Source: Psammoneis japonica (taxonomy: Eukaryota). Taken from it: a stretch of 64,000 nt of DNA. Below are positions 1,391 to 64,000 of the stretch, piece by piece. Location of the stretch: contig QPGO01000083.1 in NCBI GenBank assembly GCA_008632985.1, forward strand, positions 223,075 through 287,074, in the 5' to 3' direction. Every line of letters starts with the position of its first letter. Within the stretch, counting starts at the first letter, position 1. The notes beneath the pieces are model-generated. The model was given only the letters and a program-made list of their open reading frames with translations. It did no database searches and was not told the DNA's origin. Made by a program: the position numbers and the translations under genes.

Positions 1391-1425
<35 letters not shown>

Positions 1426-1808
1426 GCCTCAATGAAACACACAGCATGAGTGCATGAATGTGGCAATGCATGAGGTCGGTTGTGATGCAACAAAAGCAAT
1501 GTTGACAATGCGAACCTCCAGCAAGAATTTTCACCATCAGCTGCCCACATGAACCTGTGCGCTCTCAAGCTTGTCACACACCTTGTGCTGTGGCGTGCGA
1601 TGTTCCGTTGAGAGTGCACTGCAAAGTGCCTCAGAAACAACCACATTTTTGAAATCGGCAAAACGCCATTGTTCGTGTCATTTTGCGTGTTGTTTTGCGT
1701 TGAGAGCCAGAAAACACTCCCAAAATCTGTTCTGCAGGAAAAATGCACTGAACCCTCACAGATTTGGGTTGCACCAGGCCACGTGGAAAATGAGCGGGCC
1801 GAGAACTG
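880..1808. repeat. Dispersed repeat (end of a probable transposon); second copy at ~62345-62965; spans an N gap (1109-1390)
   Basis: Co-linear similarity such as CAGCTCCAAGTT.CCACATTT, CACCATCAGCTGCCCA..TGAACCTGTG, ACCACATTTTTGAAATCGG and CCAGGCCACGT.GAAAATGA.CGGGC.GAGAACT at both loci. Confidence 0.8.
1391..1422. repeat. (CA)n microsatellite next to the assembly gap
   Basis: acacac... run directly after the N run. Confidence 0.9.
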
Positions 1809-2246
1809 TGGCGCACCCACTCAAATTTTATGCACATGAAGCTCACCAGTGTCTGAGCATTTTCTTTCTTCCGAATGCTGGGGAGTGGATGACAGTGACA
1901 TGTCTCGCTCAGAATCTTTTGTCATCACAAGAAAACCAGATCTGTGTTTAAAGTGCTGTCACTCCATTGCCAGCCAGGCCGGCACCGGCCGCCAACCCAC
2001 ACTTCCAGCACACCGTCAAGTGCGGCAGAAGCTGACTCTAGGATCAGCCGGAGTGGGCATCACCGTGAGATGATGCCCCTCCGAAACAGCTGGCAACTGA
2101 GCAAGTGCCGTGAAGCACGTCATGCTTTGCCTTCTTGAGGCTGTCTTTCAGGTGTGGTTTGTCCATGGCAACCCAATTCATGATCCATGAAGTGGAGTGG
2201 GACATGTGATTGTTGACTGAATCTGAGAGCACTTCTCTGTCCTCAG

Positions 2247-2491
2247 TGACAGAAAATGAAGATGACTGGGTGGAAGAAAACAACAACTCCTTGCTGCTGT
2301 CTAAATGGCAGATGAGTGTCCATGCAGAGACCATTGCAGGAGCCGAAAGACTGGTGTCGTGATGTCGGCACTGCTGTTGTTGTTCTTGTGAGCCAAGTGG
2401 CTCAAAAGCAAACTGCATTGCGCGACGCACACGGAACTGAGAGCACACATGATCATGTGTGACAAACTAAAATCTTGCTCAAATCCTGTCA
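2247..2491 (-). repeat. 3' LTR of copia element A
   Basis: Direct repeat of 6556-6800, TG...CA termini. Confidence 0.92.
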
Positions 2492-5400
2492 CTCCCCAGT
2501 TTGCTTGAGGGGTCAACAGCGACAGATTCGAAGTCGGATTGGTTGAAAGCCTCAGGATCGAAGTTCCAAAACATTAGAGGATGAAGGAGGTTCCAGATTT
2601 GGGAGCAGCCCCAATGCTTGCTGAGGATGTCAGCCGGGTTGCGGGAGCCTTCGACAAAATGAAGCTCAAGGAAACCGGAGGCAATCGCCTCACTCACATG
2701 ATGGAACAAGAGGGCGGTGTGTCGCTTGTGTAACTTGGAGTGCAGGATGGCAGCACCGTCCACAACCGACTTGTTGTTTTCCAGGAAGATCATCATTTGC
2801 AGGGCACGGAGAGACACTGCTCCAGAACAGACACTGTCGACGGGCACGTCTGTGAGGTGTCCATCGGCAACAAGCCTTGCTTTGTGCTGTCCGTCATGTT
2901 TGACGTCACAGACGAGATGCACCCGGATCTTCTTGTGTCCTGATGGAGCACTGGAATCGTTGTGGTGTCCGCAGTCATGGAAGACCTCGCACTCATCAAG
3001 CTGAGTCATCTCGAGGTCCGTTGCATCTCCCCACTTGCGGTTGCCGTTGTGCTCATCAAGGGCCATGGCATGCCTGTGGTCCCATGGCACTTCATGCCCA
3101 CACTTGCATCATGGCGCAGTGTGAAAGGAGCACAACTTGGCTTGGTTGGCCATGCGGAACAGCTTCTTCTGATGAAGGGCCATCTTGCAAAAGCGTCTCC
3201 ATCCTTCGGTTTCTAGAAGGCCGTGCTCACACGCGTAGATGGCACAGGTGATGGGTTCGTCCTTGGCAATGATGGCAAGGGGTTCGGACGTGATCTCCCT
3301 GTTCTCCCATTCAAGCATGACGTTGCAGCTTGAGCCTTTCCAAGAGGGATCATGGGGTCGCAATGGTCCTTCATGTGGTGCAATGTGTCGGAACTTCCAG
3401 AGGGTGGTGTCCTTGTCTTCTTGCTCAATGTGGTGCATGATGTCATTGCAGGCCAGGACTTCCTCACATTCGTCATTGTTGACAGAGCAAATGAACTTGA
3501 CCAGTTCAGGATTGTCTCCGATTTTCCAGTCATGGTCCTCAATGACTTTGACGATGCGGGCTCTGTGGCGTTGTCCATCCTCTTGTGGCTTCATGAGGAA
3601 GGTGCGTCCCATGACATCCTCAGGGTCAAAGACCGGCACTTTGGGCATCCTGATTGCCTCCCCATCTGGTGAATCTGGTGAATCTGGTGAATCCTCAGAG
3701 TCGTGGCGGGATTTGATGACAGGTTCAGCAGATTTCTTGTCAGGAGGATCAAGACGCAGGTTTGGAGCAGACGGATCATGGGCGGAGCGCATGTTGGAAC
3801 AGCAGAGAATCTTCTGAGTGTCGTCAGAAAGAATCTTGAACGTCATTTGGTGACCAACGTGCTCAGCGATGTGTGGGAGGCCGGCTTTGATGTCGATGGG
3901 AATGACGCATCCATCAACAGTGGTGATGCGCTGCAGACCGTCGGGGACCTTGATGGACCGATCGTTGACATCGTGTTTGCACCACTCAAGCTGGCCGCAA
4001 GAGTGTGTCGTCTTCCCCTTTCCAGTGTGGGTGCACTGGTGAAGGATGGCAATGGCAGGGCTGCGTTGTGTGTGGATGACACCACCGGCAGCGACAATGG
4101 GAATGTCTGCCAGTTGATGATCATCGACACCTTGGACATCAATGTCATTGGGCTTTGCGTCGGAGCAGACGGAAGGTGCAGATCTGGGTGGTTTCCCGCC
4201 AGAACGGGCGGAAGGAGGCCGTTCAGGTGCCAGGAGAAGTTGCAAGTCGCCGGGTGGCAGGGGCTTGCGCCTGGTGAGATGAGCCAGAATGGGGTTAGCA
4301 TCGGCTGCATCAGCTGCAGCGTCAGATTGTGCGAAGGCTGATGCAAGATCGCGAGTGTTGGCGGACAAGTTGACATCGCCATTGCTGCCAATGCGGAGGT
4401 CGTGCAGGTTGACCGCCGTCAAGTCATGGCAGTTGCCGGTGTGGGCGGTGCACGAGCCAAGAATGATGGCCTTGGTGGACTGGGGCAAGGTGTCCCAAAT
4501 GCGCTGATGGTCCGGCGGAATGCGACGCCATTGTTCCTTGGTGAGGGAATTGCCACGAGTTTGTGCAGCACAAGCTTGGATGATGTCAACATCGCTGTCG
4601 ATGTCGAAGAACACATCGTCATCAGGGTCGTCAGGGACCAGGTCATGTTCGTAGATGGCACGGCGCGGAGCGCGAGGAGCCGTCTTGGGGGCGAACGTGC
4701 TGTCGCACTGTGCTGCAGCAGAAAGCAGGAGTCCACAGTGCTCTTCGTAAGAGAGCCCCTTTTCATTCTGTGTGTGGAACTGATCGGCCTGATTCTTCAC
4801 CGAACGGAGTTCTTTGACAGGATGAACGGCATTCTCAAGCATGACACGTTTCTGGCCAGCAGAGAAATGGTCTGCACCCAGGACAAGAGCTTCACACTTG
4901 CAAAGCTGGTCCTGCCAGTGAAGTGTGGAGGCATGGGTGGATCCGTTCCAGGTGCCATCACCAAGGCGAGCAGTGGCGAGGTACGTGAGAAGGGTCGAGG
5001 ACTCCAGGGTTGCGCGAGTGGAAGCAAGGGTGTGCTTGGAGAGGTCACGATGCACCGCTTGAGCATCAGAGGAGCCAACATGTTGATGAACAATTGCCCT
5101 GCCTTTGTCATTCTGCAAGATCCACTCGAGTGTGGCGAACATGTGCTTCTGTTGTTCATCAAACAGGGCCTTGTCCTCAGCTGTAGAAGGCTTGTACGTC
5201 AGATCGAGAATGCGTGTGACATCTTGGGAGCGGGCCTGTGCGATGATGGAGGTGTGCCACGTGTGCCACTGTTTGTCAGATTTGAGAAGTGCGAAGGCAA
5301 GTGGGTCATGTTTGATGCCTCGTTTAAAGTCACGCATGGGATCACGTGGTTTGGGTGGCAACGAGCCAGGAGTGGGAGCAGATGGTGCTGCACCCATGGA

Positions 5401-5745
5401 GAGGGACGCTGCATGCTCAGGACCAAGACGATGGTTGGTGAGCTCCTCTTGTGTGAACAATTGAGGGTCATTGCTGACATCCACACCGCCCCAAGCTTTT
5501 GCCATGTGCAGGCTAATCAGCGCAGCTGTCTGTGCTTTGTAACCGCGTGGCAAGGGCATTTGATTGGCGCCATCGTTGCACACAAGGGCACCCAATTGCA
5601 TTGGAGTAAAAGTGAAAAGGTCCTGATGTGAATCGGTTCCATCAATGTTGAGAGCAGAGCGCAATGGACTGTCTGCAGCTTGATTCAGAACAGTGCCTAG
5701 AATGTGTTCGAGGCCATCGATTTGTTGTTGCCTGGTGAGAACCAT
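2479..5745 (-). pseudogene. gag-pol remnant of copia element A (integrase core and most of RT missing)
   Basis: DFKRGIKHD gag motif, DVNDRSIKV, IRVHLVCDVKHDG, KLHKRHTAL, NPADILSKHWG; abrupt junctions LPHI|AEHVGH and MMIFL|ENNKSVV. Confidence 0.85.
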
Positions 5746-6555
5746 GTTGCAACTGGGTGGATGTCAGAACTGGCTGGAGTCGGAGGGTGAGCTTGAAATG
5801 ACTTGAAACTTGACTTGAATCTTGACTTGATGTCTTGAACTGTCTCAAGAGTCAGAAGCCGCTGGGCTGTGACATCCTGTTTGCAGCCAAGTGCTGAGCT
5901 TCCTGTCCGGTCTGTAGAGTTGTGCCGGCACGTCTGAACCCACAGCTGGCGACGCTTTGGGTTGCTTGAGAGCGGAGTGACGGGTTAAAAACCCCTGCTG
6001 ACAAGCCAGCCAGAGGTGGACAAGACCTCCAAACCGTTCTTGTTTTATGTGGGTTGGATGACCCGATCAGGCCGGCCAAATTTGGCACTGTGGAGGGACG
6101 AACAAATGTGGGAAATGCACCCTCGCCCCAATGCAGGCTGTGATCATGAACTGCTTCCTCTCACAGTTGTCCTCGTGGACCTTGCAGGACTGTGGAAGAC
6201 CAGCAATCCGGTGTAGATACAAAGCGGTAGACTTGGCGTGCGTGGAGCAGAGCCAGAGTCAGGGGTTTGCATCGTGTGCGCATGGATGCGAGCGGATGGA
6301 TTGGCAGGATCCGCTGTGAGGAATCCGGAATCTCGGATGTCTGAGAATTTGGGAATTCCTGGCCAAAGAAACATCTTGAACAAACACATCCAACGATGGG
6401 AGGCATTGGATGAATCCAAACGTGTGGATTCAATGCAGTGTCCAGCAGTGAAGAAGGTGGACATGCACTTCCACCACAAACGGTGCGTGTCGTCGAAAAT
6501 TTCTCGATGACAATGATGAACGCTCAATGGATGACAAAGAGCAAGACTGTTTGTC

Positions 6556-6800
6556 TGACAGAAAATGAAGATGACTGGGCGGAAGAAAACAACAACTCCT
6601 TGCTGCTGTCTAAACAGCAGATGAGTCTCCGTGCAGAGACCGTCACAGGAGCCGAAAGACTGGTGTCATGACATTGGTGCTGCTGTCATTGTTCTTGTGA
6701 GCCGAGTGGCTCGAAAGCAAACTGCATCACGCGACGCGCACGGAACTAAGAGCACTCACAATTGTGTGTGACAAACTAAAATCTTGTTCAAATCCTGTCA
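6556..6800 (-). repeat. 5' LTR of copia element A
   Basis: Direct repeat of 2247-2491. Confidence 0.92.
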
Positions 6801-7564
6801 CTCAGCAAGACATTCCTGTCATTTGTTGTGTGCAGCCACAAGTTTGCCTTCCGCCTGTTGGCATTGAGATGATTTCCTTGTCTCTGCATCATGGTCATGA
6901 ACCTCCTGATTGTGTTCTTCCCAAAGTTCCCACCAGAGCTTCCAAACAAAAGTTCCCATCTGCACTCCCCAAACCGGAGGCGGGCGATTCTCCCTGCGAC
7001 ACTTTTTCAAAAGGCAGGCCCATTTTAAGAAGGTGCATCTCTCCTGAAAAACATTCCAAACCCTTTGACATCACAACGGCAATCTTTTGCACTGTAGAGT
7101 CATTGCGCAAAACTTGTGTGGAACAGCACCAAGACAAGTGATGGAAAGTCTGTCTGTCTGTCCTTGGCGAATTTTGACTTTGCAAAAAATGGACTTGACT
7201 CTTTTCTGACAAGGCGCGTTTTTTTTCAATGCAATCTGCAGGCATTCTCAGCTGTTTTAGATGCATTCCAGGCCCAGGTGGGAGCTCCATGTTGCAGCAC
7301 TGACATGTGACACAATTGTTTTTTTGTCATCCGTTGCGTGTTTCACGCGCACATTTCTGCATGTGATGTGTTTTGCGAAACCCCAGACGTTTTATTTGAC
7401 AAAATTGTGGGAACACAAATGCACCAGGTGCATTCTTAAATGTCTGAAGAATGCACCTGGCCAAGCAGAAAATGATGTGTTTCAATCACAGACGAGTTTG
7501 TGCATTTGCAAAATTGCCTCATTTTCTGTTGGAGATCATTGACATGTTAATCACCTGACAATTT

Positions 7565-35290: not shown

Positions 35291-35477
35291 GCCCTAGATG
35301 ATAATCTATATTCCATTTCTTATGTATTTTCTACGCCTTTTTTGTACTGTGATGGAATTCATGTTATTTTTCTCCTTGTTTTTCCACTCTGAACTCTGCC
35401 TCGCGAAAATTCCAAAATTCCATCGCCGAAAAATCCCAAAATCGCCAACACATCATCAAATTCGATTCCCTCCCACC

Positions 35478-41080: not shown

Positions 41081-41379
41081 TTAAGTGTCGTGAGTGAAGA
41101 AACAATAGCAGGAGTCGTACTCGTTAATTGTACTGCATAGCACTGTGTTGATGAATGCAGCCGTTGCCACAAGTGACTGCACTCTTTAAATAAATGATGG
41201 ACAGCTAGCTTAACGAAAAATCATGCTGGAAGGGACTCGTTTGTCCAGCAAGCCTCGGCGGATGTAAAAGAGATCGACACTGACCGCTACTGATCAACCT
41301 GTGTCAACAACGCTTCACTCGCGAATAATGCCTTTTAGAATCCACTCCCTCGCGCCATCGCTCGGGTCAGTTTCGTGCA

Positions 41380-42633
41380 CGACGTCTCCTGCTTGAGCCT
41401 TCCAGTGCGGGCTGATTCGTCCCACTGCCATGCGGTGCTGACTCCCCGCATCTGTAAGTGGAAATCAATCAACAGAGTTGGTACGAGACTCAACCCACTC
41501 GTTTCAATGATGAATGTGTTGCTCTCATTGAGGTTGCATCAACTTGTTGGTGCACATTCCTTGCGTTTTCTCCACTTTTGTGCTTCTTCTTTTGTGGCTC
41601 TGCTTCATCAACACCAACCAGCTCTCGTCGTTTGCCATCACTGGAAAACAGGAGGCTGACACTCTCATTCCTGGTGTGAGATTGAGAAGAGCAACAGCAT
41701 GACATGTGATTGAGCCTGTTGGAAGGACCAGGCCTGGTGCTCTTTGCAAACAGGGTGTCGTTGTGTTCCCGCAACAGCCCAACAGCTTTTGGCTCATTGT
41801 CACCGCTTTCATCGCCAGCCATGGCAAAAGTCGATGGTGTTGAGCCACCTGATGCTGCAGGAACACTCCCTGTTGTTCCCAAGGCTTCTCCTGGAGGAAT
41901 GCTGGTTGTTGGGCAGCTGGAATTGGTCGGAGGAGGTGTGACAGAACACACAAGGGGGGGTTGATGGATTGCCGGATGCGCACCTTGAGATCCCGCCAAA
42001 GCCATTTTGGCTCAAAGCAAATCTTTTTGTTGGGTCAAATTGTCAACATTCTTCTTGCACAGATTCTTTTCCCAATGTGGCACATTGGCAACTTTCAATC
42101 TCTCGAAATCACGGTGAGGTTTGTTGAGCGTGCTAAGATCCTTGATTTTCCTGTCCACGACTCTGCTGAAGTCCTTGGAACAACCCGTGGCTGATCTCGG
42201 GAGCACTGCTGAAGACCCCAACTTTGACAAATCAAGGTGAATCTTTGACAATGACTTGGCGCCATTCAAATCAAGCTTCAGTGGCTTCGATTGAAGTTCC
42301 ATTGTGAGCAGCTGATGGACAATTTGACGTGAAAATCGTCCGACACTCAGGTGGTGCAATTGGCAGCGAGCGACAGATGTGAATCAAAACTTCATCCAAT
42401 GAGCATGTGCTTCCCAGCATCAACAGCAACTGTGCAACGCATCGCTTGTCAAATCGTCATGGTCATGCAGTGGCAGGCCTCCGAATTTCACACACCATGG
42501 TGCGGTGTGTTTTTTTTTGTGTGGGATCCTTGAGTCCAGTTGAACGCGATTTCGTTCGAATCGAGCTCTGTGAAGTGATCTGCCCTGCAGCACTTGGTGA
42601 CATCGGAGCTTGAGTCGACGCAGGCCAACTGCG
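41380..42633. mobile_element. Decayed TpA-depleted repeat next to the copia B insertion site
   Basis: Composition only; Tyr-free ORFs. Confidence 0.4.
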
Positions 42634-42638
42634 TAGAG

Positions 42639-42833
42639 AGTTGACATCTGTCAATCTACCTGTCGACTGCGCGCAATCGCGCGCTTCAATTTTCAAATTC
42701 CGCCATCAAAACTCTGCTCGACACTGCAGTCATAATTTTCAGTCAGCAACTTTTGCAACAACAACAGCCACTAGTTTACAACCTTGAGCATCAGCTCTTT
42801 CGACATCTGCAGTTGTGCATCGGCACAACAAGT
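42639..42833 (+). repeat. 5' LTR of copia B
   Basis: Gapless match to 49907-50101 with 12 differences. Confidence 0.95.
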
Positions 42834-43337: not shown

Positions 43338-45539
43338 ATGGCCGGAACGCCGTCAAAGACTCCGTCCAAGACCCCCAAGGGTGCCAAGACCCCGCAACAG
43401 AGGAGTCAGACTCCTCAACCTTCTTGAACCGGCAATGGGACACCTGCTGCTCCCGCTGGTAAGAACAGCAGTTCCACCACAGGAGCTAATCAACCTCTGC
43501 CTCCTCCACGGCGTGGAGGGATCCATCCAGAATGTGGGCGACACATGGGCGGTTCTCCGTTAGACGACGACTGCAAGCCCAAGCTGCCTCGTTCCTGCCG
43601 CTCAACTGACCAGTCTCGCGACAAGAAGATTCTACCGCACATCGAACGTGCTCTTCGCGAAGCTCAAGACGGAACACTCGTCGTCAAGTTTGACGGAAAC
43701 CTCGAGCTCACAGACACGACCACCAACAAGCTCGATCAATCCCACTTCGTTCAAGCTGTCCGCACCCTTGTCAAGGAGCATGGCTTGGAGAACTTCTTCG
43801 CCATGAAGCTCGAGAAGAAGGTTGTGTCGCCATTCGACCATCTCCACTCTTTTATGGTCGACGAGGTGATTGCCGAGTGCCTTCATCGCGCCAACGTCGC
43901 CAAGGACTTCACTGCCTATGATGATTACGAGCACAACGATGTCGCTCTCTCCCAATTGGTTGTTGAGTCTAGAATCTCACACCAATTCCGCGAGAAGATC
44001 GAGGTCCAATTCGGACATGACGATCTCTTTGAGCACTGCCCCGGTCAAGTCTATTTGATGATGGCTTTGGATGCTTGCAATGCGTCTGCCACACATGACG
44101 TTGCCCAAGCCGCCGAGGATCTCGATGCTCCATCGCTTGCATCCTACCTGGGTGAGGACGTGACTGAGTTCGCCACCGAAGCTCTCCGTCTCACCAAGCT
44201 GCTCCAAGCCGGGTGTGCGTCACCTGTCAACCTCGGGTCGAGCATTCTCAAGAAGTGCCAAAAGACCTCATGTGAGGCATTCAATTGCAAGATTTACGCC
44301 AAGTTGGACAAGGTGTCGACCATGGAACACAAGCATCGCCTTGGCGATCCCAAGGCGATTGCCGCCAACTCCGACTATGATGAACTCGGGCCCACAGCGT
44401 GCACTTCCTTTTTGCAGAAGGAGCATCGCTTCTGCGTCACCGACAAGGATTGGCCCGGACTTTCCACCAAGCTCCCTCAGAGCAACAACGCTTCCAAGAC
44501 CGGAAAAGGGGCCTGCAATGCATGTGGTGCTCCAGACCACTGGGCCAATGATCCCAAGTGTCCCAAGTGTGCCGAACGTCAGAAGCGCAAGAAAGAGAAA
44601 CGTGAGCAGCGTCAACAGAATGGTCGCAAGGATGACCCGACGGTTCCACCTGCCACTGCACCGCCTCCTGCGTCTTCCGTTACGGTTGATGCTGTCCCTG
44701 CTGACAAACAAGCCAAACTCAAGGAGTTGCTCACCAACGAGCCCCATCGTTACACCCGTCCGGCGGACCTGTCCAAACCCGTCGTGAACAAGTGTGGTTC
44801 GACCACGTGTTTTTGTGGAAAGTGCACTTGCAAGCACACCGGCATTCGGGGGATGTGTGCGAATCACAAGGAGTCAGATCATGTTCGCAAACCACCGAAA
44901 CAAGAACCACCTGCGGCTGGTCTTACCTCCATTGACGACCCAGATTCGGGCGTCCCACCTGGGCCACCCACTCAGACTGCTCCAGACCCAACCAATGCGC
45001 CCGAGCCCTCTCCTGCTGAGGACGAGCTTGTTTGGACTGGATTCCATTGTTGTGTGGTCGAGGACTCGTCTCCTCCCACCCCGTCTGTCATGCGAGTCTC
45101 CTGCAAACCCGCTTCTGCATCTCAGAGGGAGCGCCTGCCGGTTGCAGTCGAGACCATCGAACCTGAAGATGCTGATGACTTCAGCGATTGCTTCGATGCA
45201 CATGACGACCTGTCTTGGGACGATTCCATTGTTGTGTTTCCGCCCATGACTGCTCCTTCATCCAGTGTCCCCACTTCAGGCACTCTGGCTCCTGTGGCAG
45301 AGTTCTTCTTCGATGCCGAGTCCGGACCCGAACCCGTGCCGGATCCACCGGTTCCCCAAGCTCACCATCCATTGCCATGGGATCTCCTCAAGCTCCCGCT
45401 CTTTTGGATCTCTGCAATGCTTTGGGAAGGTCTCCTGTGGCTCGTCTGCTCCCAGGATGATCCCCCCCCTCCTCCCCGCTGTGAACGTCGCCTCAAGCAC
45501 GCCCTGCGCTGCATCGCCACCCCCATCATTGGGGCGTGA
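43338..45539 (+). pseudogene. copia B gag with CCHC zinc knuckle
   Basis: CNACGAPDHWANDPKC; start inferred at ATG ~43338 with a frameshift into ORF 43545-45539. Confidence 0.75.
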
Positions 45540-48500
45540 TTGCGTGCGCAATTGCGCTTTGGCATTTTGTGTGCAGCGGCGCTGTCCCTCCCCACCCCTT
45601 TCAATCATTGGACCGCCTCTCTTCTCCAACATGCAAAGTTGTCTCTGCTCTCGATGAGCGCGTCGATCTGTCGCCTGGTGCGTTCGTCCAGTGCCATGCC
45701 ATCAAGGTCAGACAATTCAAATGTGAGTTGGCGTGCTCAGAGGGAGACAAGCAAGACACCGCCACTCTGCCTTTCGAACTTTCCAAGTTGGTTGACAAGA
45801 GTGACAACGACGATTTCTTTGATGCGCACACGGAGCGCCCCGTCCATGCGGAATGCTTCTTCGATGCTGCCACCTTCCGCGAGTCTGTCTGCTCAAGCCC
45901 GGATGTCTTCGGCATTGCTGACTTGTGTCACGCCTGCTACTTCGTCGACTGCACCAATGCTCCGGAGCTCGCTACGGAGGATCCATCGGCTTCCCCCGCT
46001 TTGCCGACCTCCGCTGCACTTCGTGCTGTTTCCGGGGAGACCCAACTTACGCGTCTCGCCGCTGATCCCCAGGCCCTCTTCCACATCGGACCAAGTGATC
46101 TCCAGGTTGTTTTTGATGCTGGTGCCTCACAGGCCATCACTCCTGACGAGAAAGATTTTGATGGTCCGATCAAGTGCTGCCGGACCCCGCTCCGCCTCGG
46201 CGGCATGGCTGACGGCATGTGCATCCCTGGTGAGGGCACCGTCACGTGGACCTTTCAAGCCAGGGAGGGTCACGAAATTGCTGTCCAGCTCCGTGCCCAT
46301 TTCGTCCCATCCTCCAAGGTTCGCCTGCTTTCTCCACAACGTCTCTTCCATGCAGACGGCATTGAAGGACATTTTTGGGGTGACAGTGAGATTTTCAAGG
46401 TTTGTTTCACAGACATGCCGGAGTTGATGCTCGAGTGCGATGAGCGCTCCCACTTGCCGGTTGGCTGCACGACTCTCGGTTCCATCCATGCACCACAAGT
46501 CAATTTGAGCACTGTCAGTGACCCGGACAATCTCAATCTGTCTGCTGGACAGAAGCTTCTCAATGAATGGCATGCGCGCTTTGGGCACTTACATTTTCCC
46601 AAGATCCAAGCTCCACTCCGCGGCCATCTGTTCGAGGCCATGAAATTCAAGGCAGCATCCAAATGCGACATTCCAAAATGCGACACATGCGAATGTTCCA
46701 AGGCTCATCGCCGTTCTTTGAAGTCTGCCATTCACAAATCCGACCCCAAGCGCGATGGAGCATTGAAGGCTGACCATCTCAATCCCGGCCAGTCCGTCAG
46801 CGTCGACCATTTCGAATCGCGTCTCAAGGGCCGCACCTGTGATTCACACGGCAAACCGTCCTCCCAGCAGTGTGTTGGCGGCTGCATCTTTGTCGACCAC
46901 GCCTCTGGTTACATCCACGTTGAACACCAAGTCGGTTTCTCCGCAGTCGAGACTGTTCGAGCAAAACAGGCATGTGAGACCATGGCAATGGGACACAGCA
47001 TGATCGTCCAAACTCACCTCACCGACGGCGGCGCTTTCAAGGCCAACCAGTTCGTTTCCCACATCCACAACTCCCAGCAACGCATGCACTTTTGTGGCAC
47101 CAATGCTCATCATCAAAATGGTGTTGCCGAACGCTCCATTCGGCCCATGTCCAATGTGGCTCGCGCCATGATCCTCCATGCTTCGATTCACTGGCGTGGC
47201 GGCATCGACAGCTCTCTGTGGCCCATGGCAGTGCACCATGCTGCCCACATCTACAACACTGCTCCCGGCGCCCATGGTCTGTGTCCCGCCGACATCTTTG
47301 CTGGCTCTGCCGTCCCACGCCACCGCCTCCATGATCTCCACGTTTGGGGTTGTCCTGTCTGTGTCTTGGATCCCAAATTACAGGAGGGCAAGAAACTTCC
47401 CCGTTGGCAGCCGCGTTCTCGGCGTGGTGTCTTTCTCAGACTCAGCAATGTTCACGCCAGTGAGGTGCCATTGGTCCTCAATCTCAATGCTGGCTCCATT
47501 GCTCCCCAGTGCCACGTCATGTTTGACGATCTCTTCACCACGGTTGCTTCGATCGTGAGGGAGAGCGAACCGCCGGATCACTGGGAAGAATTGTGGTTGG
47601 AGAACACCACTCAAATTCCCTTGGACTCGTCTGACAGACCGTTGTTCCTTCAAGATGACTGGCTTGCTCCTGCTGAACTTGAACAGAAACGACGACACGA
47701 GACTGGGGAACGCAACATTCGCGCTGCACGTCAACAGCAGCAGAACTTGCCAAAACCCACTGAGAAGCCACCACCTGCAACGGATCCTTTGCAACTCCAA
47801 ATCCACCGCCGTCTACACCATCGATGCCAACAACTGCAGTTGATCCATCACCGACACCACCGCCACAAACACCGTCGCTTCAAAACCCATCATCGCCGAT
47901 GCCTCCAGTTGATGATCCTCCACCTTCAGTCGTACGTCCGCCATCTGCTGCTGGCGATGGTCCGGGCACGTCAGTCCCATCCACGACTGCTCCAGTCCCA
48001 CCTGAACCCTCATCCACGACTGAGACACCAGGGGTGCGCCGATCCCAACGGTCGAACAAGGGTGCGCGCACAACTGCTCGTTTCGCCGACGAAGCATGTC
48101 TGGCTTCTGTCATCCCTGACGATGTTGGAGGACAACAGGCTCAGCTTGCCCATTTGGCTGAGATCCAGACTGACTGTGATTCGGGTGTTTTGGACATTCA
48201 GGACCCGCGGATCTACGCCACTAAAGTCAAACGCGATGCGGACAATCCGAACATTTGCGAGGCTCTCTCGGGTGATTTTGCCAAGCAGTGCATTGAAGCC
48301 ATGAAGACAGAGGTATCTGCTCTTGTCCATCGTAAAACGTGGCAATTTGTGAAGCGGGAGAAGCCAATGAATGTGCTCAAGTCCACGTGGGCATTCAAGT
48401 TGAAACGATTGCCGGATGGCACGCCGCTCAAGTTCTCAAAGCGCGATTTTGTGTCCGAGGAGATCTACAAAAAGAGGGAGTTGACTGCTTCGAGACCCAC

Positions 48501-49883
48501 GCTCCAGTGGTCCAACAGTCGACCATCCGTCTCGCATTGAGTGCCGTCCTACAAGAAGGATGGACCACCCGTCAGGTTGATTGCACCAACGCTTTTGCGC
48601 AGGCCGAGATGACGGAAGACGTTCACATCGAACCACCCAAGTGTTTTGCTCCCAGTTCGGGATCCAATGTTGTCTTGAAGCTGCTCAAGAGTCTCTGCGG
48701 TCTCAAGCAAGCTCCCAAGTGCTTCTTTGATAAGCTGCGTGAAGGATCATTGGAACGTGGATGGACCCAGTCGCAAGTCGACCCGTGCCTGTTTTTCAAG
48801 GACGGTGTGATTTGTGCAGTCCATGTTGATGATGCTGTCCTCGCTGGCAAGAATGGAGCCGCTCTAGAAAATGAGATCAAGGCTCCAGGCATCCAAGACG
48901 ACGAACAACGCCATGCATTCGAGTTGCGAAACGAGGGAGAAGTTGGTGACTTCCTCGGTGTCAAGATTCGCAAAACCGGACCCAAGGAATTCCTCCTTGC
49001 CCAGCCTGGACTCATTGACAAGACCCTCAAAACAGCTGATGTGGAAGATTGCCGCTCTTCTCCCACTCCTGGCACTGCCTCCCCATGTCATGCGGATAAA
49101 GAGGGAGCCGAATTCGACGAGAACTGGGACTGCCGTTCCGTCATCGGCATGTTGATGCACCCATCATCCAACTCCCGACCAGATGTCTGCTGCGCCACGC
49201 ATCAAGCCGCTCGTTTCTCATGTGCTCCCAAGCATTCTCATGCGATTGCGGCGAAGCGCATTCTGCGCTACTTGCAAGGCACTGAGGACAAGGGACTCCA
49301 TCTACGCCCTGGCGACAACGAACGTGTTGATTGTTTCGTTGACGCCGACTTCGCCGGCCTCTGCGGTCACGAAGACACTCAAGATCCGGTCAGCGTCAAG
49401 TCCTGCACCGGACATGTCATCTTGCACTGCGATTGTCCTGTTTTATGGGTTTCTAAGCTACAGACGCAAATGGCACTCTCCACAATGGAAGCCGAGCACC
49501 TTGCTCTGTCGGCTGCGATGCGCGATCTGACCCCGATTCGTGAAATTTTGAAGGAATTCAAGTGTCATGTTTTCGGTCTCACGGATTACAAGACCCCTGC
49601 CACCACCAAGTCCAAGGCCTTTTCAGATGTAAAGGATGGTGCGATCCCTTCTTCAGCAGTTTATGAAGACAATCAGGCGTGCCTCAAGTTTGCGAAAATG
49701 GCCAAGTTGTCTCCACGCACCAAACACATTGGCACTCCCTGTCATTGGTTCCGCACCAAGGTCGAGGCTCTTGAGATCCAGATTGAGCCTGTAGGAACTG
49801 ATTCCCAGTTAGCTGATCAATTTACGAAGGGACTTATTACTGACAAGTTTGAATCTGGTCGGTTGAGTCTCTCAGGCTGGTGG
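45536..49883 (+). pseudogene. copia B pol (protease, GAG-pre-integrase, integrase, RT, RNaseH), frameshifted and hypermutated
   Basis: VFDAGAS (PR), WHARFGH...CDTC, SVDHF/HLTDGG/NGVAER (IN), KARFCVRG, CGLKQAP, HVDD (RT), VDADFAG, EAEH, YEDNQAC, QLADQFTK (RH); frameshifts near 47800 and 48433. Confidence 0.93.
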
Positions 49884-49906
49884 CTCTACCTACGGTTGAG
49901 AGGGAG

Positions 49907-50101
49907 AGTTGACGTCTGTCAATCTACCTGTCGACTGCGCGTAATCGCGCGCTTCAATTTTCAAATTCCGCCATCAAAACTCTGCTCGATATTGCAGTCA
50001 TAATTTTCAGTCAGCGACTTTTGCAACAACAACAGCTACTAGTTTACAACCTTGAGCATCAGCTCTTTCGATATCTACAGTTATACATCGGTATAACAAG
50101 T
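49907..50101 (+). repeat. 3' LTR of copia B
   Basis: Follows the PPT; followed by TSD TAGAG. Confidence 0.95.
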
Positions 50102-50169
50102 TAGAGTGTACATTTTAGGCGGCGAGCGACAACACATAACACGGCATAATCTTTTTGGGTGATCCAACC

Positions 50170-51713
50170 ATGATGAACTCTGAATCAAGCCAAGAACATG
50201 CAGACGATATGTGCAAAGCATGCGGGATACCACGTGGGTGGATTGGAGCTACCGGTGTTCCCCTTGAGGCCGGTGTTTACCCTGAACCTGAAAGATCACT
50301 AAGGTCGTGCTCCGCTTGCGGTCACTATTACAACAAATTGTCATTACCAGAACCACAAGCAGATCGTTTGATTGCCTGTTGCCTTGCTCGCGATTGGGAT
50401 GAAGCACTTGAATGTGTAACTGCTGCACCGCATGCCGCGAAATGCATTTCGAGTGTCAACGGCATTACTCCGATGCAAATGGCAATCCAACACCGAGCTC
50501 CGCTAGCTCTTATTCGAGCTCTTGTCAGCGCTTGGCCAGAGTGTTACGTTGTCGATGAATTCGAATTTTACCGCGATCCCCTTTTTTACGCAATCCTCGA
50601 ATTTGGACTCTCTGAATACACATACAATTTGATGGAGATTTTTGTTGAGGCCGATAACAACGTCCTTCTTGACGTATCGTACATGGTAACTCTTATCGGG
50701 CATATCTGTCGCACTTTTTCTCAAAAGTTTATAGAGGCTTCTGAACTTCCAGCATCACTTCCCATAAATGACGTTCTGGCCTATCACAATGAAGAAAGTG
50801 GAATTGATGCAGGCGAGATTGAGCTGGCTTTTCGGCACCTAACGTTACTAGTCAAGGCGGAATACCACCAGTCCATTCATGTGCACGATTTTTCTCTCGT
50901 GCATGCTATTGCTGGCTGCCGTGATCCGTTGCTGCGGCCAGCGGGTTTGTTGGACCTTGCTATTCGTTTCCATCGACAAGAGCTCGAACAAGTGGATTTG
51001 CATGGAAACTCTCCTCTCCATGTCGCTTCATCGACCACTAACCGTAACAAGAACGAATATGTTGATTACCCGAGTCCACCTTACTGGTTGGATGAGAGTC
51101 AAATTCCAGATTGCATTTATGATTTGTTTTCCAGAAAATTTGATGGATATGGGTTTTACTGTGATTTTTATGATTACCTTCAAGCGAATTGCCGTTGCGT
51201 CGAGTGTAAGTGTTCCGAAAAGACTGACGAAATGGGTTGCACGCAATGCTTTCACAAGTATTACAAAGAAACAGAGTGCACCTGCTCTGAGGAGGAATTC
51301 AACGAGTGCTACACTTCTGGTGATGAAATCTTCGATAGATACTTTTTACCAAAGATGAGCAACGAGCACCGATGGACAAAGAGTCCGAGATTCAAATGCT
51401 TGCAGAGGCATGTCCCAACTCTGCCCGCCTCTATAACAATAGTGGCGAGCTCCCCATACATTGCGCCATTGCGTGTGGGAAGGTTTGGGATGGAGGAATC
51501 AACCATCTTGTCAAAGCATTCCCAGAGTCCTTGGCGTTGAAGCATAAGGGCTTGCACCCATTCGCGTTTGCGGCTCTGGGTGAGAAGTCGGATCTCGACA
51601 CGGTTCTAGAATTATTACTCGCTGATCCTTCTCTGGTCAAGTGTGCAGTGCCTGACTGTGCTGCCGCTATTTCTCCACAGCAGTGCTCAAGCAAGAAACG
51701 TAAGCACGAATGA
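50170..51713 (+). CDS. Ankyrin-repeat-like protein with N-terminal CxxC...CxxC; possible intron 51206-51354 (otherwise a frameshift)
   Basis: GITPMQMAI, GNSPLHVA, GELPIHCAI, LHPFAFAA; removing GTAAGT...AAAG joins ORF 50155-51540 in frame to ORF 51372-51713. Confidence 0.7.
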
Positions 51714-60299: not shown

Positions 60300-62344
60300 A
60301 CTATCAGAACCTTGCACACAATGTTCCCTGGTCAATCATGAGCCAGTTTTCCGTGTGGCAAACATGCAGTGGTGCTTTTCTGACCGGCTGCACCTCATCA
60401 AACCAAGTGCAGAATGTGCGGTGCAGACACGGTTCTTTGTGTCAGCAGGCACCATTATGTTGTCATTCAAGCAGGTGCGCAGAAGTGGGATTGCCAAAAC
60501 TCAGCAAAGTGTTCCATCATTCTGATGTCAACGTCCAATGTTTGTGGCCACTTTCTCAAAGAGCCAGTTGTTGGACAATTCAATGCCATCTTCCAGTGCA
60601 CATTTGACAGGTCCATGCAAAATTTAGGAGCTCCACCACTTGTGGACAGCATTGCACAGGCCAGCTCCAGGGCCTGTCACCCAGGCTCTCATTGATGTGT
60701 GGCCTGAGAGTGGATCTTCTGATCACCACAGCACTTTCAATGGCATGTGGGGGTGGTCATTTCCATCCAACCCCAAGGTTGGTGGTCCCAAACTCTCTGA
60801 GCATTGGAGAGATGCATTCTCAAAACAGTGGCAAGGGTGAGATGGACTCAGCATTTCAGCATCTTTCTCTTCTTCTCATGCTGGATTTCTGTGAGTCTGC
60901 CACTGTTGGTCCTTTCCATTTGCTTCACTTGACAGTTTGTTTCCGTAAACTCAATGGAGAGCAGGTGCATGAAACAGATGCTGATGTCAGCCCTGCATGT
61001 CTGTCTGTGCCGGCTTCTTTACAAACCTGATTTATTCACATCGGAATGGTCTGCTGCCCCACACAGCAGTTTGTCTGCCATCCTAAACACGGAGAAGACT
61101 GGTTGCCAGTTGGACAAGAAGTGGACAATCACAGTGCTTTTGCCAGATGCTTGTCTCAAATCTGCCAGTTTTTGAAACAAGCTTGGGGAGCTGCTCTGAT
61201 TCACTGTGCCTGTTCTGCTGAATGGGTGTGGGGCACAGAAGTCAAGTGTTTTGTCAACTCATGCACTGAGACACTGGTGACCAAGCAACACAAGTGCTTG
61301 TGGGGCTCTGTGGCTGAGAGTGCAAATCCAGATGTGGTCATTTAAAAACTTTTTCTTGCAGATTCACATGTTGTTGTCGCACCAGAACAACCTTTGTCAG
61401 CGGTGCTTCAATCGTGAATGATGCCTTGCAGAGTTGACTCTCTCACGCCATCTGCTCTTTGACTGCACAGTGCACTTCTGTTGGCTGATGCTGTTGCAGA
61501 AGCATGTCCTGCCACTTGCTCTAAAGCGGGGCCCTTTGCTTTTCGCTGTCCAACAGAGGGGGCTTGTGGCTTGCAGCTTGACTCCAGATTGCACGCAGCG
61601 AAGTTTTTTTTTGCTGTTCAAAAATTTTGACACAAAAAAGACATGTCAAAAATTGATGTCTTCAATTGTGAGAGCTGCAAAGCAAGAGCAAAGTCCTGAA
61701 ACATTGGGTTCCCCAAGCAATTTGTGTGGCATGCAAATCTGTGTGAAACTTCCAAACTCTGACTTTGAACAACATCATGTTTGTCAATTGACAAATCTTT
61801 GTGCACAAACACAGAAAATGGACAGGGAAAATCACACAAAACAGCCGCTTTTTTGCTTGAGTGACAAACTGGCTTTTAACAGCAAACATTTGCTTTTCAC
61901 TCTCTCTGACCAATGTTTTGCATCTGTCTGATTTTGTTCAGCTGGCTCATCAAGAGCTTTCCAATGATGTGCCCCTGTTTGTCATTTGTGAGAACAAAAG
62001 TTTGCACAGACACATGCTGCTCCAGAGCATGTGTCTGTGCATTTGTGCAGCTTTTGTGCAAGTTGAATTGCAGAGGGATGTTGTTAGACACAAAACATTT
62101 GTCATGCCTGCCAAATTGATGGACAACCATTGGAGGCACATTTTGCTGGTGCAAACGTGCAGAATTTCACACAGCTGCACAGATGGTCTGCCTCTGGAGA
62201 AGGTCTGTGCAGGTGAGAGTGCACAGGAGGTCTCTGGAGGGGGTCTGTGCACAAGTGGGGACACAGGTCATGGGGTCTGTGGCGCAATCCTGAAAAGAAG
62301 TTGGCTGCTTCTGACGCGCCTCCTCGACAGCGACAGATCAGAGC
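60300..62344. mobile_element. Decayed TpA/CpG-depleted repeat DNA, unclassified
   Basis: Composition and Tyr-free ORFs. Confidence 0.5.
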
Positions 62345-62973
62345 TCTTGACAGCTTGTCCAGCTTTGGACATGACAGCTCCAAGTTTCCACATTTTTTGT
62401 GAACTCTTTCTGATGCTGTGCCCATCACTTGGCCTTGTTGTTGGATTGCCATGGCTGTCTGCTGCAGAAGTGGCATTTTTGTTGAGGAAATCTGTCCCAG
62501 GGATGAGATGGCTCATGTGTGGCGAGGGAGACCCTGTGCAGAACAAAACAACAATGAGGAAAGACACTGCACATGTGAGTTTTCAAGAATGTAAACATGT
62601 GAGGCCTCAATGAAACACACAGTGTGAATGGTGATGCACAAGGCTCGTCAATGGACAGCTGGGTGATGATGTTGTCAGCACAAACCTTGACAAGATTTTT
62701 CACCATCAGCTGCCCATGTGAACCTGTGTGTTCTCGAGCTGTCACATGCCTTGTGCCATGACGTGTGATGTTCCATTGAGATTTCACAACAAAACACTTC
62801 AGAGACGACCACATTTTTGAAATCGGTGAAACGCCATTGCCTCTGTGTTATTTTGATCCGCGAGCCAGAAAACACTCCCCAAAATCCAAAATTGCTCTAT
62901 CGGGTGCAGAGCAAAATGTCCTGGGTTGTACCAGGCCACGTAGAAAATGAACGGGCTGAGAACTCCGGTAGTA
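62345..62973. repeat. Copy of the 880-1808 repeat, ending ...GAGAACTCCGGTAGTA
   Basis: Co-linear similarity; the terminal part keeps TpA. Confidence 0.8.
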
Positions 62974-63017
62974 TCTTACCCATCATAATATCCCCCAAAG
63001 TGAGGCAAGATCCAACC

Positions 63018-64000
63018 ATGATGTCAAGCCAAGAACGTGCGATCCACATGTGTGAAGTATGTGGGAGACCACTTGGGTGGATTGAAAATGCCGGTGTCCC
63101 CCTTGCTGTCGGTGTGAGTCTTGACCCTGTCGGATCAACGAATGTGTGCGCCGCTTGCGGTCATCATTACAACGAATTCTCGTCGCCAGAACCACAAGCA
63201 ACTCGTCTGGTTGCCTGTTGTCTTGCACGCGATTGGGATGAAGCGCTTGAATGCGTAACTTCTGCACCGCACGCAGCGAAATGCGTTTCAAGTTTCGACG
63301 GCCGAACTCCGATCCAAATGGCAATCTTTCACCGAGCCCCGCTAGCTCTTATTCGAGCTCTTGTCAGCGCTTGGCCGGAGTGTTACGTTGTCGATGAAAA
63401 CGACGTCGACCCTGACCCCCTCCCTTATGTAATCTCCAAATTTGAACTCTCTGAATATACTTACAATTTGATGGAGATTTTTGTTGAGGCCGATAACAAC
63501 GCCATTCTCAACGCATGGTACTTGAGGATAACTCCTACAGGGTATTTCTGTCGAGAGTTTTCTGAAAAGCTTAAAGAGGCGTCTGGGCTTCCAGCATCAC
63601 TCTCCATGAATGATGTTCTGGCCTATCACAATGAAGAAAATGGAATTGATGCAGGCGAGATTGAACTTGCTTTTCGGCACCTCACGTTACTTGTCAAGGC
63701 GGAATACCATGGGTCCATCCATGTTGACGATTTTTCTCTCGTGCATGCTGTTGCTGGTTGCCGCGATCCGTTCCTTCGGCCAGCGGGCTTGTTGGACCTT
63801 GCCATTCGTTTCCATCGACAAGAGCTTGAACAAGTGGATTTGCATGGAAACTCTCCGCTCCATGTCGCTTCATCTACCACTAACCGTAACAAGAACGAAC
63901 ATGTTGATTTCCAGATTTTCCAGATTCCAGAGTACATTTATGATTTGTTTTGCAGCAAGATTGATGAATATGGGCTTTTCTGTGATTTTGAAGGTTACCG
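63018..64000 (+). CDS. Paralog of the 50170 ankyrin-like gene, running off the window end
   Basis: ATG 63018 gives MMSSQERAIHMCEVCG...CCLARDWDEALECVT...GNSPLHVASSTTNRNKNE, open to 64000 (absent from the ORF track because it has no stop). Confidence 0.85.
   Translation, partial: MMSSQERAIHMCEVCGRPLGWIENAGVPLAVGVSLDPVGSTNVCAACGHHYNEFSSPEPQATRLVACCLARDWDEALECVTSAPHAAKCVSSFDGRTPIQMAIFHRAPLALIRALVSAWPECYVVDENDVDPDPLPYVISKFELSEYTYNLMEIFVEADNNAILNAWYLRITPTGYFCREFSEKLKEASGLPASLSMNDVLAYHNEENGIDAGEIELAFRHLTLLVKAEYHGSIHVDDFSLVHAVAGCRDPFLRPAGLLDLAIRFHRQELEQVDLHGNSPLHVASSTTNRNKNEHVDFQIFQIPEYIYDLFCSKIDEYGLFCDFEGY

Follow-up and report, generated by a model that had tools for sequence, protein, structure and literature searches.

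The locus raises the question of how a hypermutation process that removes TpA (TA) dinucleotides selects its targets: a retrotransposon largely stripped of TA returns to normal TA density in its final ~310 bp, directly beside a gene, and it was asked whether sequence and copy number suffice as a targeting rule or whether position counts as well. The window (the whole stretch of DNA that was analysed, 64,000 bp) was divided by two-state segmentation on TA content. This gave 8 depleted segments, together 38,866 of 64,000 bp, with observed/expected ratios (o/e) for TA of 0.04–0.14 against 0.46–0.92 elsewhere and for CA/TG of up to ~2; the genes in the window had TA o/e values of 0.36–0.69. CpG o/e was lower in all 8 TA-poor segments (0.23–0.87) than in all 8 normal segments (0.90–1.14; Mann–Whitney p = 1.6e-4), and TA loss and CpG loss share the same domains. 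RTAY, the most susceptible context for TA loss, made up 6% of the remaining TA in depleted domains (11/191) and 30% in normal DNA (315/1034; p = 3e-15).

The interval under study belongs to a 7.5-kb Ty1/copia LTR retrotransposon, of which it forms the 3′ end; the element was annotated together with its flanks as follows:

41337..42633, no strand assigned: TA-free block immediately 5′ of where the copia element inserted, with 1 TA in 41500–42628
42634..42638, + strand: TAGAG target-site duplication, 5′ copy
42639..42833, + strand: 5′ LTR, 195 bp, edited, with 4 TA remaining
43545..45539, + strand: copia gag-region ORF, without Pfam match
45536..48304, + strand: protease/integrase-region ORF in a different frame, with weak gag_pre-integrs and SH3_retrovirus matches, both under the Pfam cut-offs
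48339..49886, + strand: reverse transcriptase (RT)/RNase H ORF (RVT_2, E = 5e-28)
49444..49791, + strand: lightly edited zone, with the last proven edit (TGT) at 49740
49792..49906, + strand: TA-rich internal tail, 7 TA in 115 bp, with a purine run (49898–49906) at its end
49907..50101, + strand: 3′ LTR of 195 bp without edits; 13 TA, 4 of them RTAY
50102..50106, + strand: TAGAG target-site duplication, 3′ copy
50170..51713, + strand: neighbouring gene, ORFs 50170–51540 and 51372–51713, TA o/e ~0.55

The presence of TAGAG on both flanks indicates a single insertion. The integrase-region matches, although below the cut-offs, lie 5′ of RVT_2, as in the copia-type pol order, and the RT had 1949 homologues with a top identity of 65%. 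Look-ups with the 3′ end and the interior of the element in an index of scanned DNA returned no look-alikes. From its position, the purine run is presumably the polypurine tract. Frame breaks and the replacement of YVDD by HVDD mean that the element is not autonomous. The end of the 3′ LTR lies 69 bp from the ATG at 50170, the start of a gene for which a Pfam search returned no match; its ankyrin-repeat look-alikes by language-model features (score 0.93) offer a lead that the product may be ankyrin-like.

The direction of the mutation was read from the RT. At 13 of 18 aligned columns of conserved Tyr the element now has His (7) or Cys (6) and at 2 it has Tyr, YVDD among those changed to His, while the 60 homologues examined kept Tyr at 13–19 of 20; the change from conserved Tyr to His or Cys sets the direction as TA to CA/TG. 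Of the 12 LTR differences, 9 were transitions at TpA; two independent repeat pairs added CA/TG swaps, 14 in one and 8 in the other, and both strands were affected (His 7 and Cys 6 in the RT; CA 6 and TG 3 in the LTRs). Repeats other than retroelements were edited as well. A candidate strand asymmetry among the surviving TA of the copia element (YTAC 22, GTAR 5) was rejected, since plus-strand genes also gave 84 against 39 and the difference was not significant (p = 0.24). Repeat-induced point mutation (RIP) was likewise rejected as the process, its direction being opposite to Tyr to His/Cys and the GC content of the edited copia interior being higher (0.54–0.57) than that of the unedited LTR (0.42).

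The two LTRs, 195 bp each and 93.8% identical (183/195), carry the central observation. All 12 differences in their alignment were transitions, 9 of TA type, 2 of CpG type and 1 other T/C. Nine sites that are TA in the 3′ LTR are CA (6) or TG (3) in the 5′ LTR, 2 sites that are CG in the 3′ LTR are CA in the 5′ LTR, 4 TA are common to both, and no TA is found in the 5′ LTR alone. The claim of the sequence-only reading that the 3′ LTR, 69 bp from the ATG, is unedited and the 5′ LTR edited was thus borne out, with 9/13 TA sites edited in the 5′ LTR and 0/13 in the 3′ LTR (Fisher p = 4.6e-4), a comparison that comprises 13 sites in one LTR pair, of two that the window contains. It is controlled for context, since the 3′ LTR keeps intact all nine sites that were edited in its partner, four of them RTAY and five not. 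Because LTRs are identical at insertion and of the same age, their opposite outcomes mean that targeting follows position as well as sequence. The changes are post-insertion and one-sided. By arithmetic from the footprint in this one pair, TA loss (ln(13/4) = 1.2 per TA) is estimated to have outpaced other substitutions (3/338 per remaining base) roughly a hundredfold.

The differences between the two LTRs rule out editing of RNA or cDNA before integration. An intrinsic difference between 5′ and 3′ LTRs was ruled out by a second pair, which lies deep within a depleted domain:

2247..6803, no strand assigned: control LTR element far from genes, with LTRs at 2247–2494 and 6556–6803, 88.7% identical

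Both of its LTRs are edited, with 8 CA/TG swaps, 1 site with TG opposite TA and 2 shared TA. A TA-bearing 3′ LTR would also result if gene conversion with an unedited copy had restored an edited 3′ end, several near-identical copies being available as donors, or if reads of such an unedited copy had been misplaced in the assembly. Both TAGAG duplications are intact, however. A unique-depth contig (54.5) that shows 0 differences covers 50072–50529 and links the terminal 30 bp of the 3′ LTR (50072–50101), where 6 of the 9 TA sites changed in its counterpart survive, to the gene flank. With the same pattern also present at a second, unrelated repeat (below), repair or misassembly is very improbable.

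Across the interior of the element, the position at which TA returns was located by maximum likelihood. It had been proposed that TpA returns from about 49550, which the counts did not support: 49540–49799 contained 4 TA in 260 bp, against 14 in 1340 bp in 48200–49539 (p = 0.52), and a conserved Tyr is still Cys (TGT) at 49740. The change point of TA density fell at 49792 (support 49758–49810), and a graded two-step model gained just 2.67 lnL. A weaker fade, resolved by context, does exist in 49444–49791, where 4.4 RTAY were expected and none was present (P = 0.012), and mixed contexts were near expectation (5 against 7.0). Depletion was strongest in the ORF at 45536..48304, with 9 TA in 45000–48199 (3200 bp); the 5′ side was less depleted than this middle part (22 TA in 2166 bp, p = 0.0007). 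This gives the profile a bell shape rather than a purely gene-ward slope, and an effect of the element's edges therefore contributes or competes.

Such an edge effect would be expected of a homology-sensing, RIP-like mechanism that needs homology on both sides, in which case the gene would be incidental and the 5′ LTR would be edited because it abuts a repeat block. It fits the bell shape, the multi-copy state of the copia family in the reads and the fact that both spared stretches, here and at the second repeat, are repeat ends adjoining unique DNA. Summed contig depth, a rough guide only, was nevertheless highest over the LTR (677 in 49832–50215, against 218–612 elsewhere in the element and 49–72 in unique flanks). 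The block upstream of the element is fully TA-free despite contig depth of ~61 in 41000–42151, like that of the unique flanks, and a homologue search within the window with 41500–42633 returned matches at chance level only. The paralogue of the neighbouring gene gave further evidence against it:

63018..64000, + strand: gene paralogous to that at 50170 (82% identical across ~1 kb)

Despite 1 kb of homology, these two genes are unedited: sites of TA loss numbered 8 and 5, with 21 TA shared, hence without directional TA loss. An edge effect as the explanation is accordingly considered unlikely. Opposite LTR fates, a depth at the spared end that is not lower, the spared paralogues and the control pair edited in both LTRs support the earlier proposal that targeting is not by homology alone; asymmetry between the LTRs, like the unedited paralogues, speaks against homology as a sufficient trigger.

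A more serious alternative for the interior, and for the interior gradient only, is that the pattern was inherited, the progenitor RNA having been already TA-depleted inside and TA-rich at its ends, so that the step at 49792 and the gradient would be historical and unrelated to the gene. Selection for LTR and polypurine-tract signals in a trans-mobilised defective lineage, or template switching between edited and unedited RNA, could have produced such a progenitor, and the element, with its frame breaks and HVDD, is non-autonomous. Read contigs of 156–258 depth (unique ~61) carry the window's edited states. Among 40 of the 77 places that differ from the read contigs, all at or below 46697 and so outside the 3′ end of the element, 0 show TA against an edited state and 8 are CA/TG swaps, or ~0.2 per 100 bp, against 2.5–3.4 per 100 bp in independently edited pairs. 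So few swaps imply that most interior edits, possibly including the step at 49792, may predate insertion. The private non-TA divergence of the interior (0.6%, 24 in 4.1 kb) matches that per LTR (0.8%, 3 in 2 × 195 bp), which places the TA-poor state of the interior at about the time of insertion. On the other side, Logan contigs drop rare variants, edits could also be shared through gene conversion among copies, and inheritance cannot account for 9/13 against 0/13 in once-identical LTRs. We regard an inherited gradient as a real possibility, held at somewhat less than even chances; the data suggest that most interior TA loss is common to other copies and may predate insertion, unrelated to the gene. 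As the interior pattern may thus have been inherited, the LTR pair is left as the clean positional evidence.

A second locus, beside the paralogous gene, was compared through a repeat present in two copies:

873..1830, + strand: repeat copy A, with an N gap at 1109–1390, edited as far as its end and lying in a large depleted domain
62341..62975, + strand: repeat copy B, in which homology to copy A stops ~43 bp before the ATG at 63018

In 62423–62827, 14 of 14 visible sites of copy B are CA/TG swaps relative to copy A. Beyond that, copy B retains TA at 62849, 62929 and 62941, where copy A has CA/TG at 1691, 1772 and 1784. TA is thus retained over the last ~170 bp 5′ of the ATG at 63018, and the same pattern that had been noticed near 62925–62973 was recovered (14/14 edited up to 62827, 0/3 after, p = 0.0015), the sparing at this locus being that of 3 sites. 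A 95-bp repeat also retained 6 TA at 35258–35349 beside a gene start, its copy at 28046–28140 having CA/TG.

Gene distance and TA o/e were compared at 15 domain borders, all within the window. Depleted domains ended about 150–730 bp before start codons (one at 3 bp, where the start codon is uncertain) and 76–386 bp past stop codons, and this similarity of distances means that the effect is not promoter-specific. The proposal of the sequence-only reading that editing is blocked near promoters was therefore too narrow, since domains likewise end short of stop codons. The equal distance at gene 3′ ends also speaks against purifying selection, by which the whole element would have been edited and haplotypes edited in the ~300 bp 5′ of the gene, now its promoter or 5′ UTR, would have been purged. 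Spared DNA directly 5′ of the ATG at two paralogous genes would suit such purging, as would the bursts of 2–45 mutations per line reported for Bigelowiella natans (bioRxiv 10.64898/2026.01.13.699255), by which a burst reaching the gene would be selectable as a unit. Constraint on all 13 TA of a recent LTR is, however, hard to credit, and the LTR is without partial editing; purifying selection is judged highly unlikely.

The TA-free block upstream of the copia element extends to the insertion site, and before the element arrived no more than ~70 bp separated that site from the ATG; either spared DNA once formed a much narrower zone, or the block was edited after its displacement by the insertion. 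A 1.86-kb element bounded by terminal inverted repeats, within a depleted domain and away from ORF-defined genes, was unedited (RTAY at 32 of 100 TA), so that location in a domain is insufficient and age or another trigger matters. An Rfam scan of the window gave 0 matches, and the gene-less, TA-normal segment 17235–18955 is thus not explained by an RNA gene.

On balance, it is somewhat more likely than not that a TpA to TpG/CpA (A:T to G:C) hypermutation of resident DNA acts regionally, with edges that follow transcription units. It would work within silent, transposon-filled domains, whose edges would be set by the neighbouring transcription units and not by transposon ends. The copia element inserted 69 bp 5′ of the gene, on this reading at the border of such a silent domain, after which its domain-side LTR lost nine of 13 TA and its gene-side LTR none. 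The adenines of TpA may be the target of a deaminase-like activity that silent, cytosine-methylated chromatin recruits or licenses and that active chromatin at the gene keeps out. Much of the interior TA loss would stem from a progenitor that had itself been edited while its LTR-forming ends remained rich in TA; if so, the LTR contrast alone measures the position effect at the copia locus. Chromatin state is a plausible targeting factor, for which the CpG depletion of the TA-poor segments serves as an indirect proxy. In Phaeodactylum tricornutum, H3K9me2/3 and H3K27me3 have been described on copia elements, and nucleosome depletion ~150 bp 5′ of the transcription start site in highly expressed genes.

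Regional hypermutation of this kind resembles most closely the hypermutation, specific to TpA, that integrated NCLDV and virophage DNA undergoes in B. natans (Mettrop et al., bioRxiv 10.64898/2026.01.13.699255). There, mutation-accumulation lines yielded de novo measurements of the TpA-only signature, in a transcriptionally silent region of integrated virus. In both, T/A to C/G is the only change, it occurs at TpA and gives TpG or CpA by strand, and it is limited to kb-scale regions of foreign or mobile DNA. TpA-poor, CpA- and TpG-rich clusters in B. natans are described as enriched in reverse transcriptase and DDE genes, and its main hypermutable region is silent and reaches ~21 kb past the annotated virus, so that the process is regional there too. 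The two cases differ in that B. natans is a rhizarian alga with de novo mutations, whereas a footprint alone in a diatom-like genome is described here, and in the deeper depletion here (TA o/e 0.04–0.14 against a Rho of 0.45 for the NCLDV region). The main text of the preprint contains no analysis of stopping points relative to genes or within elements. A literature search, with subscription journals mostly outside its coverage, found no paper on TpA-erasing hypermutation in diatoms.

RIP in Neurospora and other ascomycetes, including its leakage to adjacent single-copy DNA (PMC7296669, PMC3105345, PMC2973834), is similar as a dinucleotide-specific transition hypermutation that inactivates inserted transposons in place, in a zone that may overrun repeat ends. 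RIP changes C:G to T:A, makes TpA and lowers GC, whereas the process here destroys TpA, raises GC and spares gene paralogues. Editing of retroelements before integration by APOBEC3 (cDNA) or ADAR (RNA) (PMC4866542) is likewise a deaminase-type transition hypermutation, and ADARs favour U preceding the edited A (bioRxiv 10.64898/2026.01.13.699255). Pre-integration edits give identical LTRs, however, and cDNA editing a strand bias, in contrast to the 9 TA-type LTR differences on both strands found here. The CpG loss in the window has the same domains and the same TG/CA products as the TA loss and is one-sided in the LTR pair (2 sites), as in 5-methylcytosine CpG decay. Such decay, through deamination of 5-methylcytosine, cannot remove TpA. 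CpG loss is also the slower of the two here, the young copia element having a CpG o/e of 0.87 against a TA o/e of 0.12.

So far a single description of TpA-erasing hypermutation exists, from a preprint of 2026 that concerns an unrelated alga. The LTR pair amounts to a natural before-and-after experiment, in which sequence, age and element are the same and the neighbours alone differ, and its contrast indicates that the targeting rule includes position (domain or chromatin state) beyond sequence or copy number. This narrows the search for a mechanism towards chromatin-recruited editors, and LTR asymmetry compared with the state of the flank offers a simple genome-wide test. In a fuller version, advanced tentatively and rather doubtful as a whole, a deaminase-like enzyme guided by silent-chromatin marks would rewrite TpA over whole domains, active transcription units would fence it out within a few hundred bp, and defective, trans-mobilised retrotransposons would persist, their interiors erased and their LTRs TA-rich since a copy must have its ends unedited to remain mobile. 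There is a hint that defective elements with erased interiors and intact LTRs are still spreading, which, if true, would be a transposon's way of coexisting with a hypermutation defence. Should the chromatin-guided reading be true, maps of TA loss would be a lasting DNA record of former chromatin borders.

The interval 49540–50170 was identified as the 3' end of a Ty1/copia LTR retrotransposon, and the features compared were as follows:

42639–42833, 5' LTR of the copia element, 195 bp, flanked by the 5-bp duplication TAGAG
49907–50101, 3' LTR of the copia element, 195 bp, flanked by the same duplication
873–1830, copy A of another repeat, containing an assembly gap (282 N, 1109–1390)
62341–62975, copy B of that repeat

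A purine run lies immediately 5' of the 3' LTR, and the copia element holds three long ORFs, each in a different frame, the last encoding a copia-type reverse transcriptase (RVT_2, E = 5e-28; 1949 database homologues, top identity 65%). From the end of the 3' LTR, 69 bp remain to the ATG at 50170 of a gene without any Pfam match, for which ankyrin-like features are a lead only. On the other side, the insertion site is abutted by a TA-free block (41337–42633; 1 TA in 1.1 kb), with single-copy contig depth across 41000–42151 and no homologue found within the window. Before the insertion, this block ended ~70 bp from the gene's ATG; either editing (TA → CA/TG hypermutation) formerly reached that near the gene, or the displaced DNA was edited later.

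LTRs of one element are identical at insertion. The two were found to differ at 12 positions, every one a transition: at 9 the 3' LTR has TA and the 5' LTR CA (6) or TG (3), at 2 the 3' LTR has CG and the 5' LTR CA, and the remaining T/C difference adjoins an edited site. TA is common to both at 4 sites; no site had TA in the 5' LTR alone, and CA/TG swaps (CA in one copy, TG in the other) were absent. Edited sites thus number 9/13 in the 5' LTR vs 0/13 in the 3' LTR (Fisher p = 4.6e-4), which bears out the sequence-only reading that the former is edited and the latter is not. Arithmetic on this pair gives a rate of TA loss about two orders of magnitude above that of other substitutions. Context matters to survival: among surviving TA, RTAY makes up 6% (11/191) in TA-depleted vs 30% (315/1034) in normal DNA, and YTAR 46% vs 19%. 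The LTR comparison is controlled for context because the same sites are compared; all 4 RTAY sites of the 3' LTR are kept. Misassembly of the 3' LTR end is unlikely, since an independently assembled contig from the sole public DNA run holding the locus matched with 0 differences at unique depth (54.5), bridging 50072–50101 and the gene flank and taking in 6 of the 9 TA sites whose 5' LTR counterparts are edited.

The direction of change was assessed on the reverse transcriptase, using 60 of 120 listed homologues and scoring aligned columns with Tyr in at least half of them (n = 18). The copia protein has His (CAY) at 7, Cys (TGY) at 6, Tyr at 2 and other residues at 3 of these columns, and its YVDD motif now reads HVDD. 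Homologues themselves retain Tyr at 13–19 of 20 such columns; TA is therefore the ancestral state. By the His and Cys counts (7 vs 6), both strands were affected about equally.

The proposed return of TA from about 49550 has no statistical support (4 TA in 49540–49799 vs 14 in 48200–49539, p = 0.52). A single change point in TA density is best placed at 49792 (support 49758–49810), ~115 bp ahead of the 3' LTR and ~380 bp ahead of the ATG; an extra earlier step at 48210 gained just 2.67 lnL, and a conserved Tyr at 49740 is still altered to Cys. Retention of mixed-context TA, expressed relative to the normal DNA of the window, was 39% in 42834–44999, 12% in 45000–48199, 32% in 48200–49443, 71% in 49444–49791 (RTAY there 0 vs 4.4 expected, P = 0.012) and at least 100% from 49792 onward; in the 5' LTR, with the 3' LTR as reference, 3/8 (38%) survive. 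A shallow fade is thus visible once contexts are separated, and what gradual fade there is from 49550 is weak. Over the element the profile is bell-shaped, its single clear asymmetry being the untouched 3' LTR with the ~115 bp preceding it. Surviving TA in the copia interior (42834–49443) lies in YTAC/GTAR in 27 of 42 cases (CTAC 13, TTAC 9), and in older depleted DNA mostly in YTAR (TTAA 38, CTAA 21; of 144).

In the reads, the copia family has multiple copies: contig depth when summed, a rough guide only, was 218–677 over the element, 49–72 on the gene-side flank and 61 upstream. Read contigs differed from the window at 77 places, of which 40, spanning 42611–46697, were listed; the rest may include the 3' end. 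At each listed place the sole covering contig has the other letter (depth 64–258); these differences comprise CA/TG swaps at 8 sites (16 letters), CA/TG in the window vs CG in the contig at 16 places, and 8 other changes; none of the 40 sets TA opposite an edited state. Swaps amount to ~0.2 per 100 bp, compared with 2.5–3.4 in independently edited pairs. With few swaps and no TA against edited states, most interior edits appear common to other copies; they are probably older than the insertion, or homogenised. With 13 TA in 195 bp, the LTR had not lost its TA-richness by the time of insertion; a defective progenitor whose interior was erased and whose ends were intact may have passed on both the interior bell and the step at 49792. 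The effect of position in place is accordingly measured only by the LTR contrast and copy B. Contigs at 3–4x unique depth carry nearly all of the element's edited states among the listed places in 42611–46697, which suggests ongoing copying of a defective lineage whose interior is erased and whose LTRs are TA-rich. At 42611, the sole read contig, at unique depth, has C (CG) vs T (TG) in the assembly; this may be an allelic difference.

Copies A and B differ as CA vs TG at 14 places (62423–62827), and both were therefore edited independently from TA. Copy B retains TA at 62849, 62929 and 62941, where copy A is edited; it is edited at 14/14 places up to 62827 vs 0/3 after (p = 0.0015). The switch lies ~170–190 bp upstream of the ATG at 63018 and ~125–150 bp within the repeat. 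The same pattern had been described from sequence for 62925–62973 beside this gene, and the TA kept at 62929 and 62941 agrees with it. For control, the LTR pair at 2247–2494/6556–6803, far inside the large depleted domain, was compared; it showed 8 swaps and 1 one-sided site, and both LTRs were edited. A 95-bp repeat has 6 TA at 35258–35349, where the myosin locus starts, and CA/TG instead in its copy at 28046–28140.

The gene at 50170 has a paralogue at 63018 (82% identity over ~1 kb). TA vs CA/TG differences between the two are balanced (8 vs 5) and 21 TA are common; ~1 kb of homology failed to bring editing. These ankyrin-like paralogues (50161–51178 and 63009–63999) lie 12.8 kb apart, each behind a different transposon ending 43–69 bp ahead of the ATG, and their upstream homology is lost within ~45 bp.

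Along the window, nearly TA-free, CA- and TG-rich DNA alternates with DNA of ordinary TA content. Two-state segmentation yielded 8 depleted segments (38,866 of 64,000 bp; TA o/e 0.04–0.14) and 8 normal segments (0.46–0.92), the latter holding the recognisable genes (myosin, PAS protein, AAA_16 protein, metallophosphatase, MSS51/zf-MYND protein, others). With gene ends derived from ORFs and hence approximate, depleted domains border 153, ~600, 357, 170 and 378–726 bp upstream of start codons, with one extra border at 3 bp where the start codon is uncertain, and 386, 328, 256, 107 and 76 bp downstream of stop codons. Since borders fall short of both starts and stops, sparing is not particular to promoters, contrary to the suggested block near promoters; the spared DNA comprises the transcription units and, on each side, a few hundred bp beyond them. 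CpG o/e was 0.23–0.87 in all 8 depleted vs 0.90–1.14 in all 8 normal domains (p = 1.6e-4), and at both CpG-type LTR differences the 5' LTR again holds the derived state. This CpG loss is compatible with present or past cytosine methylation and silencing. In another species, the diatom Phaeodactylum tricornutum, copia elements are marked by H3K9me2/3 and H3K27me3, and highly expressed genes show nucleosome depletion ~150 bp upstream of the TSS (PMC4504042). Chromatin would be a reasonable, unproven explanation of targeting.

A further TA-poor core, within 24274–27628, holds a 180-bp tandem array (4 copies, 25824–26576) between inverted-repeat arms (24629–24754/26621–26746, 91%; 24274–24338/27564–27628, 94%). 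The outer arms are TA-normal and differ from each other at sites not of TA type; the left arm is upstream of the metallophosphatase gene (minus strand).

Amid a depleted domain, a 1.86-kb element with 29-nt inverted repeats (17230–17258/19064–19092, 97% complementary) is unedited (TA o/e 0.79; 32 of 100 TA in RTAY); on the left side, the zone of normal TA starts at most 5 bp from the element's inverted repeat. Within 17235–18955 no ORF exceeds 76 aa, and Rfam gave no match. Repeated subterminal motifs are present, and the sole mismatch between the inverted repeats is of TA/CA type. The element is probably a young non-autonomous DNA transposon, so far unedited. It follows that being far from genes, within a depleted domain, does not suffice for editing; age, episodic activity or another trigger counts besides location.

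The mutation type itself is already in print for Bigelowiella natans (bioRxiv 10.64898/2026.01.13.699255). In its mutation-accumulation lines, A>G or T>C changes, always at TpA, accounted for 230/231 mutations across two integrated viral regions; the rate was ~6e-7 there vs 3.5e-10 elsewhere, and hypermutation was episodic (11/15 lines). The larger of the two regions is transcriptionally silent and reaches ~21 kb past the annotated virus, and TpA-poor coding sequences are enriched in RT and DDE domains. The authors propose an adenosine deaminase of the ADAT-like type, with RNA or epigenetic state as possible guides; the main text of the preprint contains no analysis of stopping points relative to genes or within elements. 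Our literature search found no description of a TA → CA/TG process in diatoms. RIP is the nearest system in logic; its chemistry fails, its direction being opposite. Leakage of RIP into flanking DNA is known. The earlier proposal that homology alone does not aim the process is supported: twin LTRs differ in fate, the ~1-kb paralogues are unedited and a second locus behaves alike. With one LTR edited, its gene-side twin not, and the second locus in addition, targeting depends on more than sequence.
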